Counted from the first letter of the stretch, positions 10,431 to 13,950 are shown. The stretch is DNA of 55,228 bases from Candidatus Methylomirabilota bacterium (GCA_035259825.1 DATFWA010000296.1:1-55228); one strand, 5' to 3'. Made by a program: numbers and translations. The notes: generated by a model from the letters alone, not told the origin.

Positions 10431-10459
10431 TGGACAGCGCACTGCCGGGCTTCTATACT
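10431..10459 (+). promoter_or_regulatory. sigma70-like promoter, TGGACA-N17-TATACT, placing the transcription start at or next to the lysR GTG (leaderless)
   Basis: -35 at 10431-10436 and -10 at 10454-10459. Only 7 nt separate the -10 from GTG 10467, and there is no Shine-Dalgarno. Confidence 0.4.
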
Positions 10460-10466
10460 CAGCGGC

Positions 10467-11360
10467 GTGGATCTGCGCCAGCTCGAGATCTTCGTCAAGG
10501 TCGCAGAGCTGGGCTCGTTTTCCCGCGCCGCCGAAGCGCTGTTCCTGACCCAGCCGACCGTCTCGGAGCACATCCGCACCCTCGAGGATGAGCTGGGGAT
10601 CCGCCTGCTCGACCGCCTCGGCCGCGGAGCCGCGGTGACCCGGGGTGGAGCCTTGCTGCTCTCCTACGCGCAACGCATGCTCGCGCTGTCGCGCGAGGCG
10701 CGACAGGCGATGGAGAGCTTCCAGGGCCGGATGAGCGGCGATCTGCTGGTCGGCGCGAGCACGATTCCAGGCGAGTACATCCTCCCGGCGCTCATCGGCC
10801 GCTTCAAGGAGAAGTTCCCCGACATCGCAATCACCTTGCTGATCGGCGGCAGTCAGGCGGTGACCGAGTGGGTCGCCGAGGGGCGCGCGGAGCTCGGGGT
10901 GGTGGGCGCGCGCTCGGCGCATCGGAGCATCGAGTACCGCGAGCTCTTCCCCGACGACATCGTGGTGATCGTCAGCGCGGCGCATCCGTGGCACGGACGC
11001 AAGCAAGTGACGGTCGAGGAGCTGCGGGCCGAACCCCTCCTGCTCCGCGAGCGCGGCTCCGGCACGCGCGCGGCCCTAGAGAGCGCCCTCGACACGGCCG
11101 GCGTGGATCTCGCGGGCCTCCGGGTGGTGGGCGAGATGGGGTCGACGCAGGCGATCAAGCAGGCGGTCAAGGCCTCGGTCGGGGTGTCGCTGCTGTCGCG
11201 GCGGGCCGTCGAGGAGGAGTGCCGGGTCGGGACCCTGTGGTGCCTACGGGTGAAGAACCTGAAGATCAACCGCGCTTTCTACCTGGTCACCAATCGGGAG
11301 CGCAGCCGCTCGCCGCTGGCCGAGGCATTCCGCGCCTTCGTCGAGGCCGAGGCGGTCTGA
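10467..11360 (+). CDS. LysR-family transcriptional regulator (possibly the selenium-metabolism-associated subgroup)
   Basis: VDLRQLEIFVKVAELGSFSRAAEALFLTQPTVSEHIRTLEDELG HTH. Sits immediately upstream of selD with a 37-nt gap. Confidence 0.9.
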   Translation: MDLRQLEIFVKVAELGSFSRAAEALFLTQPTVSEHIRTLEDELGIRLLDRLGRGAAVTRGGALLLSYAQRMLALSREARQAMESFQGRMSGDLLVGASTIPGEYILPALIGRFKEKFPDIAITLLIGGSQAVTEWVAEGRAELGVVGARSAHRSIEYRELFPDDIVVIVSAAHPWHGRKQVTVEELRAEPLLLRERGSGTRAALESALDTAGVDLAGLRVVGEMGSTQAIKQAVKASVGVSLLSRRAVEEECRVGTLWCLRVKNLKINRAFYLVTNRERSRSPLAEAFRAFVEAEAV

Positions 11361-11397
11361 CGTCCCACCCGCAGTCGACGTCCCTTCCGGAACCGCG

Positions 11398-12474
11398 ATG
11401 GACACCCGACTGATCGATCCCCGGACCGGCAAGCAGATCCGTCTCACCGCCTACGCGGCCTGCGCGGGCTGAGCGTCCAAAATGGGTCCTGGAGATCTCC
11501 AGGACGTGCTCGGTGACCTGCGGCACGAAGAGCACGCCGACCTGCTCGTCGGGCTCGGCCGGAGCGACGATGCCGCGGTCTACCGCGTGACCGATGACGT
11601 GGCGATCGTGGAGACCGTCGACTTCTTCCCGCCCATCGTCGACGAACCGTATTGCTTCGGCGCGATCGCCGCCGCCAACTCGATGTCCGACGTCTACGCC
11701 ATGGGCGGTCAAGTCCTCTTCGCCCTCAACGTGGCCGGCTTCCCGCGAGATCTGCCGAAGGACATCATCGCCGCGGTCTTTCGCGGCGGCGCCGACAAGG
11801 TGCGCGAGGCGGGTGGCATCATCGCGGGCGGCCATACGGTGGTGGATGCCGAGCCCAAGTACGGCCTCTGCGTGACCGGCCGCGTGGATCCGCGCCGCAT
11901 CCTGATCAAGGGCGGCCTGCGCCCGGGGCAGCGTGTGTTCCTCTCCAAGCCGCTCGGCACCGGCGTGATCACGACCGCGGCCAAGAACGACAAGACCGAC
12001 GCGCAGACGCTGGAGGGCGCCGTCGCGAGCATGCTGCGTCTCAACCGGGTGGCGGCCGAGGTCGCCCAGCAGACGGCGGCGAACGGTGCTACCGACATCA
12101 CCGGATTCGGCCTGCTCGGGCATGCGGGGGAGATGGTAGAGGCGTCAGGCGCCGGGATCGAGTTCCGCGCGGGCGATCTGCCGGTCCTGACGGGGGCGCT
12201 GCCGCTGGCGCAGGCCGGCGTGTTCAGCGGCGGGATGGGACGGAACCGGAGCCATCTCGATGAGGCCTTCGGAGCCCGCGGGCGATTCCACGTCGGGTCC
12301 GGGGTGCCCGAGGCGCTCGTCAAGCTGCTGTGCGAGTCCGAGACGTCGGGCGGGCTGCTGTTCGCAGTAGAGGCTCAGCGCGCGCCGGAGGTCTCCGAGG
12401 CGTTCGCGAAAGCGGGTGAGGCGGTGTGGGAGGTCGGTACGGTCACCGCGGAGGCGCGGCTCGCGATCGTCTAG
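11398..12474 (+). CDS. selD: selenide, water dikinase (selenophosphate synthetase) SelD, selenocysteine-containing; TGA 11470-11472 read as Sec
   Basis: The track ORF starts at 11482 (MGPGDLQDVL...). Same-frame upstream reading gives MDTRLIDPRTGKQIRLTAYAACAG-TGA-ASKMGPGDL. This aligns by eye with E. coli SelD [20 protein letters not shown], with Cys17 matching TGA and Lys20 matching K. The body contains DDAAVY, DFFPPIVDEPY and GGHT. Confidence 0.85.
11486..11505 (+). promoter_or_regulatory. candidate bacterial SECIS hairpin for the selD UGA
   Basis: GTCCTGGA-GATC-TCCAGGAC, a perfect 8-bp stem with a 4-nt loop, beginning 13 nt after the TGA. Confidence 0.55.
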
Positions 12475-12498
12475 GATCGATCGCGTCGGAGCGAAGGA

Positions 12499-12762
12499 CT
12501 AGCCGGCGGCGTCGGAGCGCTTCAGGAAGGCGATCAGCTTCTGGCGTAGCTCGGGCGGGAGCGTGGTCTCCGGATGCTCGCGGAGACGGCGGGCGGCGTC
12601 CACCGTGCCTCGGTACGTGTTGACGAAGGCTACGCAGGGCGGGCAGCCGTCGAGATGCCACTCGAGGAGCTCGGTCTGGTCCGGCGGTAGCGACCCGTCG
12701 ATGTAGTCGGCGAGGAGCTCCACGCATTCCGGACACCCGATCTCTCGCGCCGACCCGCCCAT
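12499..12762 (-). CDS. ZAS-type zinc-finger protein (zf-HC2, RsrA-like anti-sigma factor fold), soluble, 87 aa
   Basis: MGGSAREIGCPECVELLADYIDGSL...EWHLDGCPPCVAFV, i.e. CxxC plus the HxxxCxxC motif. GAGGGGGG Shine-Dalgarno. The rest of the 485-aa track ORF is a shadow of the opposite-strand glycosyltransferase. Confidence 0.7.
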   Translation of the reverse strand: MGGSAREIGCPECVELLADYIDGSLPPDQTELLEWHLDGCPPCVAFVNTYRGTVDAARRLREHPETTLPPELRQKLIAFLKRSDAAG

Positions 12763-12906
12763 CCCGATCCCCCCTCGCCCATGAGGCAACGTGTGGTGTA
12801 GCCAAACCTTAACATACGAATGGCCGGCGGCAAGTCCGTCTTTAGCGCTCGCACCGTGCACGCGGATTGCCTTGACGCGCGGGCTCAGTGTAGGCTCGAC
12901 GCACAC

Positions 12907-13950
12907 ATGCCCGCGCGAGTGGCCGTCGTCAGCCCGTTTGCGTCTCCATCGGTTCGCGGAAATGCCATCACGGTCGAGCGGGTCACGCGCGGTCTCCGAC
13001 AGCGGGACGCGGAGGTGCGCGTCTGGGATCTCTCGACGGTGCCCGAGGGCGCGGTCGAACATCAGATCACTCAGTACGGACCGGCGCTGATCCACGCCTT
13101 TCACGCGTTCCGCGCCGGCCCCGCCGCCCTGCGTGTGGCCCGGCGAGGGTCGGTCCCGCTCCTGGTGACGGTGACCGGCACCGACGTGAACCACGATCTC
13201 ACCGAGCCCGATACTGAGCCGGTCGTGCGGCGCGTGCTCGAGGGCGCGAACGCGGTGAGCGTGTTCGACGAGTCGATGGCCACCGCGATCCTGGCCGCAA
13301 TGCCCGAGATCGCGGCACGGATCGTTGTGGTGCCGCAGAGCGTGTCCTTCGAGCCGGCTACCGGGCACTGGCCGGTCGCCGCCGCGTTGCAGCGCGCTCC
13401 CGGTCCGATCGTCCTCTTTCCCGCCGGACTCCGGAAGGTGAAGCAGCCCTCCCTGCCGCTCGAGCCCCTCGATCGGATCCGGCCGGAGCACCCCGGCCTC
13501 GAGCTGTTGTACGTCGGGCCCCTGCTGGACCCGACGGATGGCGAGGCGTTCGTGCGCTCGCTGGCCGCGCATCCGTGGGCGCGCCATCTGGGCGCGGTTC
13601 CGCACAACCGGATGCCCGCCCTGCTGGAGCTGGCCGACGTGGTGCTCAACTGCTCGCTCTCGGAAGGCGGGATGCCCAATTCCGTGCTCGAGGCGCTGTC
13701 TTTCGGTCGGGCGGTCCTCGCAAGCAATATCCCTGGCAACCGATCGCTCGTGGAGGACGGGGTCACCGGCTTTCTCTTCGACTCGCCGGACGAGCTGTCC
13801 GCCAAGGCGGACCGCCTGCTCAAGGATCCGGACCTCCGAGCCCGGCTCGGCGAGGCTGGACGCGAGCGCGTGAGCGCCCGCTATGGCGCCGACCGCGAGA
13901 TCGACGGCTACCTCGCCGCGTACACGCGCCTGACGCCCGCCTTTCGCTGA
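12907..13950 (+). CDS. GT-B fold glycosyltransferase (GT4/group 1-like); SenB-like selenosugar synthase is a hypothesis only
   Basis: MPARVAVVSPFASPSVRGNAITVERVTRGLRQRDAEV... and C-terminal SEGGMPNSVLEALSFGRAVLASNIPGNRSLVEDGVTGFLF (E-x7-E type motif). Confidence 0.85.
   Translation: MPARVAVVSPFASPSVRGNAITVERVTRGLRQRDAEVRVWDLSTVPEGAVEHQITQYGPALIHAFHAFRAGPAALRVARRGSVPLLVTVTGTDVNHDLTEPDTEPVVRRVLEGANAVSVFDESMATAILAAMPEIAARIVVVPQSVSFEPATGHWPVAAALQRAPGPIVLFPAGLRKVKQPSLPLEPLDRIRPEHPGLELLYVGPLLDPTDGEAFVRSLAAHPWARHLGAVPHNRMPALLELADVVLNCSLSEGGMPNSVLEALSFGRAVLASNIPGNRSLVEDGVTGFLFDSPDELSAKADRLLKDPDLRARLGEAGRERVSARYGADREIDGYLAAYTRLTPAFR

Follow-up and report, generated by a model that had tools for sequence, protein, structure and literature searches.

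A candidate SenB-type glycosyltransferase near a selenocysteine-containing SelD in a Methylomirabilota genome

Introduction

We analyzed a 55,228-nucleotide (nt) stretch of DNA from Candidatus Methylomirabilota bacterium (GCA_035259825.1, DATFWA010000296.1:1-55228), hereafter the window, which comes from a soil member of the Methylomirabilota/Rokubacteria lineage, as judged from the names of near-identical proteins, and has a G+C content of about 69%. Our subject is a 347-amino-acid (aa) GT-B glycosyltransferase (GT), encoded at 12907–13950 on the plus strand near selD, the gene for selenide,water dikinase (selenophosphate synthetase). We tentatively propose, giving it somewhat less than an even chance, that this GT is a SenB-type enzyme of a family sister to SenB, which would make a selenosugar from the selenophosphate of the adjacent selenocysteine (Sec)-containing SelD and would have its SenA and EgtD partners encoded elsewhere. 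SenB (Variovorax paradoxus; PDB 8FBX, 8JJN, and 8K5U) is the enzyme that makes the selenosugar in the selenoneine and ovoselenol pathways. Published structural work describes SenB as the only Se-glycosyltransferase identified, and no paper on a second Se-glycosyltransferase family was found in the searchable literature.

Results

The glycosyltransferase falls in a family related to SenB

We established gene identities, family relationships, residue conservation, and the neighborhoods of relatives as follows. The window GT matched GT4-type Pfam domains, and its best NCBIfam model was NF038229 ("GPMC system family 4 glycosyltransferase"), which aligned over the full length with 348.4 bits. The SenB model TIGR04348 ranked second, with GT residues 5–321 aligned to model positions 1–291 of 310, and BshA, MshA, and other GT4 models scored lower. 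The same ranking, NF038229 first and TIGR04348 second, was obtained for 13 further family members from Rokubacteria, NC10, Geobacterales, Desulfuromonadales, Tectomicrobia, Acidobacteria, Bacillota, Planctomycetes, and DPANN archaea. A canonical SenB used as a control, encoded directly downstream of SenA (locus L086), scored 416 bits on TIGR04348, and NF038229 was the sole other model that matched it below E 1e-10. When a profile of 54 family sequences was compared with SenB using hhalign, the alignment ran end to end (313 columns, probability 99.9%, E 3e-32). The NF038229-like family and SenB are each other's nearest relatives. Among sequences with solved structures, the window GT had its highest identity (24–26%) with SenB. 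In a neighbor-joining tree without bootstrap, the GTs linked to SenA (described below) were placed in the sister clade of the Rokubacteria GTs, with the Geobacterales as a more distant branch.

The functional residues of SenB have been defined by two independent structural studies: N20, H58, R61, T83, T85, and R155 form the selenophosphate pocket, K158 is the lysine that cleaves the Se–P bond, and N20, T23, E231, and E239 contact the donor (PMC10891094, PMC10702425). In SenB, the K158A variant builds up the selenophospho-sugar, and N20A/T85A is inactive. Alignment with HMMER and hhalign placed N19, H66, R69, T90, T92, and R176 of the window GT at the pocket positions and K179 at that of K158; on the donor side, T22, E253, and E262 corresponded to T23, E231, and E239, and D93 to D86. 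The window GT was therefore identical to SenB at 11 of 11 donor, selenophosphate-pocket, and catalytic positions. The sequence-only reading, made earlier on the same DNA, had proposed a SenB-type GT and pointed to SenB-specific residues as informative; all of those in the selenophosphate pocket were kept. Across 54 diverse family members, the 11 positions were 80–100% conserved, with T/S and R/K counted as equivalent.

Part of this agreement is generic, as R176, K179, both glutamates, and the GTD motif are features of GT4 enzymes at large. BshA carries S, Y, P, and H at the equivalents of N19, H66, R69, and T90, whereas the window GT has the SenB residue at all four. Moreover, the N-terminal GGS loop of BshA did not align to the RGNxxT motif of the family, whereas the NGNxxT of SenB did. 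At the position of the sugar-donor motif EGGAHV the window GT reads SEGGMPNSVLEA, in which the E and the GG are kept and one residue is inserted. Two canonical SenBs read EGSSNV and EGGANV there, which indicates that EGGAHV is not universal in the SenB family. Judged by its residues, the acceptor pocket of the window GT is SenB-like and would fit a small oxyanion of that kind.

SelD is a selenoprotein and adjoins a selenium-associated regulator

The selD gene (11398–12474, plus strand) contains an in-frame TGA at 11470–11472, in the context LTAYAACAG-U-ASKMGPGDL. With Cys placed at this codon, SelD passed the equivalog model TIGR00476 (346 bits; cut-off 125), and the UGA fell at the catalytic, Cys17-equivalent position in the N-terminal glycine-rich loop. 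Both the TGA and the reading frame upstream of it were conserved in 15/15 related loci, with synonymous changes around them. Because the upstream frame is conserved at the protein level despite these changes, the TGA is a Sec codon and not the sign of a mis-called start. A hairpin with an 8-bp stem and a 4-nt loop (11486–11505, plus strand) begins 14 nt after the UGA, and the RNA fold of 11470–11530 had an energy of −23.2 kcal/mol (z = −1.97); this hairpin resembles, and putatively acts as, a selenocysteine insertion sequence (SECIS). Upstream, a LysR-family regulator gene (10467–11360, plus strand; Pfam HTH_1 and LysR_substrate) adjoins selD. Its product scored 313.3 bits on NCBIfam NF040786 (LysR_Sec_metab; cut-off 250). 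The identification of a genuine Sec-containing SelD and of a LysR from the subgroup tied to selenium metabolism in the sequence-only reading was thereby upheld.

The layout described in that reading was also reproduced. The helix-turn-helix of the LysR protein (LFLTQPTVSEHIRTLEDELG) is present, and its stop codon lies 37 nt before the selD ATG at 11398; the selD stop (12474) lies 24 nt from the stop of a convergent gene for an 87-aa CxxC...HxxxCxxC protein of the ZAS type (12499–12762, minus strand); and the divergent GT gene begins 144 nt from the start of the ZAS gene. selD is thus 432 nt upstream of the GT gene, in a transcription unit predicted to be a different one, with the ZAS gene in between. 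A tblastn search of the whole window found no SenA-, EgtB-, or EgtD-like gene, confirming the absence of an EgtB/SenA-like gene that had been noted before. One weak SenA match, at 42305–42520 on the plus strand after a biotin-carrier gene (34% over 79 aa, E 0.004), was treated as probable noise.

The ZAS protein and the transcription units of the locus

The ZAS protein is soluble and passed the zf-HC2 model PF13490 (41.9 bits; threshold 22.2), and its best PDB match, aligned over the full length, was RsrA (5FRF, E 0.017). It scored 30.8 bits on the RsrA equivalog TIGR03988 (cut-off 62.5) and thus falls outside that model. The gene, which converges with selD and diverges from the GT gene, adjoins the GT gene in 14 related loci, and no sigma factor gene lies next to it at the window locus.

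Promoter-like elements precede LysR, the GT, and MoxR separately. A predicted sigma-70-like promoter (TGGACA-17-TATACT, 10431–10459, plus strand; 10/12 in a consensus scan) lies just upstream of the LysR start, and a terminator-like hairpin at 10384–10401 belongs to the gene preceding LysR. In front of the GT, a conserved block in the alignment of ZAS–GT intergenic regions contains the promoter-like element TTGCCT-18-TAGGCT (12867–12896, plus strand), which is shared by close relatives and ends 10 nt before the GT start codon, suggesting that the GT has its own, nearly leaderless transcript. Phylogenetic footprinting of the ZAS–GT intergenic region revealed no recognizable LysR box in common with the lysR–selD region.

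The linkage of selD and the glycosyltransferase is real but loose

The GTs of Rokubacteria are 55–81% identical to the window GT, and their loci share the order thrB, dcd, Pup, LysR, selD, ZAS, GT, and a MoxR-DUF58-BatA-TPR operon. Genes for LysR_Sec_metab and Sec-SelD were found 0.4–4.7 kb upstream of the GT in 14 of the 16 Rokubacteria loci with enough flank. The gap between selD and ZAS ranged from 24 nt up to 1.3–3.6 kb, filled by unrelated genes. The conservation of the selD–GT adjacency, which the sequence-only reading had named as a check, holds within Rokubacteria, often with inserts of 1.3–3.6 kb, but not elsewhere. The linkage thus exists but is loose, and the conservation of gene order could by itself account for it. 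We also considered the inserts between selD and ZAS-GT as a selenium island and rejected this, as the genes are transglutaminase-like, TlpA-like, and phosphonate ABC (ATP-binding cassette) genes.

Other genes near the GT were recorded in single loci. In the Rokubacteria locus L018, the stretch between selD/ZAS and the GT (5412–9936) encodes a predicted permease in two parts, a multihaem cytochrome c, a DUF302 protein, and an FGE-sulfatase-domain protein that is secreted. Proteins with this domain only also adjoin the GT in L011 and lie 5 kb from it in L017. They were rejected as SenA-like: they have no DinB domain and score 84 bits on the SenA model, and one is secreted.

The conserved operon downstream raises a separate explanation, namely that the GT serves the MoxR-DUF58-BatA/VWA-TPR genes, for example in the modification of an envelope or surface component, with no selenium link. 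In every Rokubacteria locus with downstream sequence except L017, the next genes on the strand of the GT encode MoxR, a protein of ~495 aa, DUF58, and a BatA/VWA protein of 1460 aa, and the GT–MoxR gap is just 54 nt in L018. We nevertheless consider this improbable: in the window MoxR comes after a gap of 206 nt and has a promoter-like site of its own, family members outside Rokubacteria are never linked to MoxR or BatA, and the GT is soluble with a pocket of the small-molecule type. In the window, this Bat-like operon spans 14157–23310 (plus strand) and encodes a MoxR AAA+ ATPase, a 496-aa protein (15210–16700) in which no Pfam domain was found, DUF58, a 1464-aa BatA/VWA protein, and a TPR protein.

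Relatives of the glycosyltransferase occur beside SenA and EgtD

In NC10 (Methylomirabilis-type) genomes the gene order is GatB, AsmA-like, GT, LysR. The LysR gene begins 3–13 nt after the GT stop, and its product passed NF040786 (295 bits in L039 and 302 bits in L023). In L039, genes for SenA and EgtD follow 4.2 kb downstream. This SenA passed NF041186 (512 bits; cut-off 420) but stayed under the threshold of 360 bits on the EgtB model, where it reached only 322, and EgtD scored 368 bits. In DPANN archaea (Woesearchaeota/Nanoarchaeota metagenome-assembled genomes), where the GT gene overlaps a YdjC deacetylase gene, SenA lies 0.9–2.6 kb from the GT in L029 and L175, with EgtD in L029, whose SenA scored 486 bits. 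The SenA proteins near family GTs, at 486–512 bits on NF041186, are in the range of those beside canonical SenB, and canonical SenB was absent from all three SenA-linked loci (L039, L029, and L175).

SenA was found beside 3 of ~29 distinct non-Rokubacterial family loci and beside 0 of 117 controls (Fisher p = 0.007, or p = 0.038 with both DPANN loci counted once). SelD, SenA, EgtD, and the related LysR were not found in 118 loci that surround generic GT4 genes and served as controls (1.41 Mb in total); these controls came from a metagenome scan whose GT pattern for non-Rokubacteria was too generic, such that only ~7 of 80 loci held family members, none of them informative. Elsewhere, SenA is common in Methylomirabilota, at separate loci. 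The NC10 loci L087, L171, and L172 carry SenA-EgtD-transporter without any adjacent GT, which implies that these genomes must encode the selenosugar step at some other place. Independently retrieved SenA loci from other taxa (L086 and L089) showed the expected SenA-SenB(-EgtD) order, and a lone SenA was found on L088, a soil contig of 71.5% GC whose taxon is unconfirmed.

Two further observations concern these loci. Between GT-LysR and SenA-EgtD, L039 (12026–14964) encodes a beta-carbonic anhydrase, a DUF4440/SnoaL-like protein, and a 200-aa ArsM-like methyltransferase. The best NCBIfam matches of the latter were ArsM-fusion selenoprotein models, over their N-terminal 200 residues only, so that a Sec-containing protein may have been called too short here. 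The DPANN observation concerns L029 (7114–12387), L175 (130–3810), L173, and L176: a SenA that passes the selenoneine synthase model adjoins the GT and a glutaredoxin (Grx), with EgtD in L029, and related DPANN loci show the order Trx-DsbD-Redoxin-YdjC-GT. In these archaea, a selenoneine or ergothioneine-type pathway would be unexpected.

Evidence against a selenosugar synthase and the competing assignments

Several observations weigh against a SenB-type function, the first of which are the curated family scores. The window GT scored 97 bits (E 1e-27) on TIGR04348, where the cut-off is 300, and its 348.4 bits on NF038229 lie below the cut-off of 400, a model on which Geomonas members reach 441 bits. 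By curated thresholds, the window GT is neither SenB nor a certified GPMC member. Membership in TIGR04348 was ruled out on this basis, and the protein was placed with the NF038229-like family. The SenB-type assignment of the sequence-only reading thus fails at the level of the family model but retains a specific kinship to SenB and the pocket residues. Second, when the family profile was searched against PDB, BshA (125 bits, positions 47–341) scored slightly above SenB (115 bits, 2–286), and a Foldseek search of PDB with the AlphaFold2 model of the GT (predicted local distance difference test score 96.8) could not separate BshA, GlgM, MshA, and SenB, with BshA on top. Third, the pocket as aligned would suit any small anionic acceptor, not selenophosphate alone, and since SelD is itself a selenoprotein, the organism decodes Sec and SelD needs no extra client.

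The genomic setting adds to these points. The GT is on its own predicted promoter and would not be co-transcribed with selD; the genes inserted between selD and ZAS-GT are the unrelated ones listed above; and L009 and L017 lack LysR, selD, and ZAS altogether. The selD–GT linkage is confined to Rokubacteria and absent in Geobacterales, NC10, DPANN, and other lineages. The proximity of SenA in L039 is not shared by its close NC10 relatives L171, L172, and L087. Most DPANN loci have thioredoxin (Trx), DsbD, redoxin, YdjC, and Grx by the GT, without SenA, and the Geobacterales GT is part of the "GPMC system", with no selenium gene within 10 kb.

Much of this evidence also bears on the main rival explanation. 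BshA and MshA are the GT4 enzymes that start bacillithiol and mycothiol synthesis, and the GT could be an enzyme of this type. Within a redox-buffer pathway, it would glycosylate a small anion other than a selenium compound, such as an organic acid, a sugar phosphate, or inositol phosphate, as the first step toward a low-molecular-weight thiol or glycoside solute, and it would be near selD by gene order only. BshA is the top match of the family profile in PDB (125 bits) and the top Foldseek match. The DPANN GT, which overlaps a YdjC-type deacetylase and is flanked by Trx, DsbD, redoxin, and Grx, follows a BshA/BshB-like logic in which no selenium gene figures; in Rokubacteria the GT is constantly next to the gene of an RsrA-like thiol-redox ZAS protein; inserts part the GT from selD; and many family loci have no selenium gene. 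On the other side, all four acceptor-side positions that distinguish SenB from BshA are SenB-type in the window GT, and the N-terminal GN..T motif aligns to SenB alone. The window GT is also compact (347 aa versus ~320 aa for SenB), without the longer acceptor loops of BshA and MshA, and the selenium-associated LysR and SenA/EgtD recur by family members in distant lineages. Taken together, we regard a BshA/MshA-like enzyme as a serious possibility, although one that we doubt.

A third alternative follows from the name of the best-scoring model: the GT may be a component of the NCBIfam-defined GPMC system and share the function of that system. NF038229 is the best match, at full length and 348 bits; this score is under the 400-bit cut-off. 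GPMC partner genes are present in all Geobacterales loci, whereas the window and all Methylomirabilota loci were negative in tblastn searches for the MBL hydrolase NF038231, TIGR04442, and the regulator NF038230. Given also that the Geobacterales clade is a more distant branch of the GT tree, we consider this very improbable.

The GPMC loci themselves (L027, 3983–11032, from Geomonas silvestris; also L025, L030, L040, and L041) consist of the GT divergent from a metallo-beta-lactamase (MBL)-fold, PhnP-like hydrolase, a 613-aa TIGR04442 protein, and a 926-aa sigma-54 regulator. Their GTs keep 9–10 of the 11 SenB positions, with H or L at the equivalent of R61 and, in L040, S for T85. PDB and Pfam searches gave no relative or domain for the TIGR04442 protein, and no paper on the GPMC system or TIGR04442 was found in the searchable literature.

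Other features of the window

No tRNA and no Rfam family was found in the window. A 68-aa Pup-like protein (9899–10105, plus strand; PF05639, 74 bits) with a C-terminal GGQ is encoded between dcd and a Zn-ribbon gene; its position is kept in related Rokubacteria loci, and genes for a proteasome or PafA were not seen in the vicinity. A complete isc operon (IscR-IscS-IscU-IscA-HscB-HscA-Fdx) spans 25170–30471. Directly past it, two small DsrE/DsrF-like genes (30914–31315 and 31281–31631, minus strand) are divergent from a second NifS-like cysteine desulfurase (31614–32789) and CysE (33174–33872). This group (30914–33872) could be a sulfur or selenium trafficking module.

Discussion

From the comparisons above we infer what the acceptor and product are, how the locus is regulated, and that this genome has a SenA. 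In the proposed mechanism, the C-terminal domain of the GT would bind a UDP-sugar, probably UDP-GlcNAc or UDP-Glc, and the narrow N-terminal pocket (N19, H66, R69, T90, T92, and R176) would bind a small oxyanion, most likely the selenophosphate made by SelD. The GT would form a C–Se glycosidic bond, after which K179 would promote Se–P hydrolysis and release the 1-seleno-sugar. LysR-selD and the GT would be separate transcription units, with the selenium-associated LysR, and perhaps the RsrA-like ZAS protein as well, coupling the locus to selenium or redox status. The selenosugar may then feed a SenA-type C–Se synthase whose gene lies elsewhere in the genome, in which case the selenoneine pathway would be dispersed.

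The sequence-only reading had inferred a SenA-less route and regarded the arrangement as undescribed. The former was not established, as relatives of the GT lie near SenA, with or without EgtD, in three loci and SenA is common elsewhere in Methylomirabilota. Nor was the novelty of the arrangement demonstrated: senBC cassettes that are chromosomally separated from the C–Se synthase have already been published for ovoselenol producers such as Marinobacter vinifirmus (PMC11030361). A bolder version of the proposal holds that NF038229-like GTs are a second wide family of selenosugar synthases, extending over Rokubacteria, NC10, DPANN archaea, and the Geobacter GPMC system, and that the SelD-ZAS-GT locus of Rokubacteria yields, under redox control and independently of any SenA-type enzyme, an end product that is a free selenosugar or a low-molecular-weight selenol derived from it. 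We consider this unlikely.

If the selenosugar assignment is true, a second family of selenosugar synthases would exist, in an unusual arrangement beside Sec-SelD and ZAS and reaching NC10, DPANN archaea, and Geobacter. Selenosugar and selenoneine biosynthesis would then reach the Methylomirabilota, a group abundant in soil and groundwater, as well as DPANN archaea; SenA genes without a SenB partner would be explained; and a first functional handle on the uncharacterized Geobacter GPMC system would be gained. If it fails, what is left is an ordinary selD neighborhood with an uncharacterized GT4 next door.

Compared with known systems, the window GT resembles SenB in its compact GT-B fold (347 versus ~320 aa), its end-to-end profile homology, the nearby selD, and the SenA and EgtD genes near the GTs of relatives. 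It differs from SenB in its identity of only 24–26%, in a longer C-terminal helix region that resembles BshA, and in the replacement of EGGAHV by SEGGMPNS, with one extra residue; moreover, it is neither overlapped nor co-transcribed with selD, and senA is not in the 55 kb. With BshA and MshA, which together with SenB are the closest solved folds, it shares a small anionic acceptor as predicted and the redox-gene neighborhoods of its family, whereas those enzymes are 30–80 residues longer and bshB/bshC and mshB/C/D are absent here. Its likeness to NF038229 of the Geobacter/Pelobacter type consists in a full-length alignment and the motifs RGNxxT, TGTD, LRxVK, SEG.N..LEA, and GNR, whereas the score (348 versus 400 bits) and the absence of the defining partner genes set it apart.

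RsrA is the ZAS anti-sigma factor of the SigR thiol-oxidative stress regulon. The window ZAS protein fails its equivalog model and has no adjacent extracytoplasmic function (ECF) sigma factor gene, but belongs to the same soluble class of ~90–100 aa with the HxxxCxxC zinc motif and an N-terminal Cys. Finally, the published senBC cassettes contain a canonical SenB, whereas the window GT is of a sister family with its own predicted promoter and with the ZAS gene in between; both combine a selenophosphate synthetase with a sugar transferase at a single locus and have the NHISS enzyme encoded elsewhere, presumably so in the present genome (PMC11030361).

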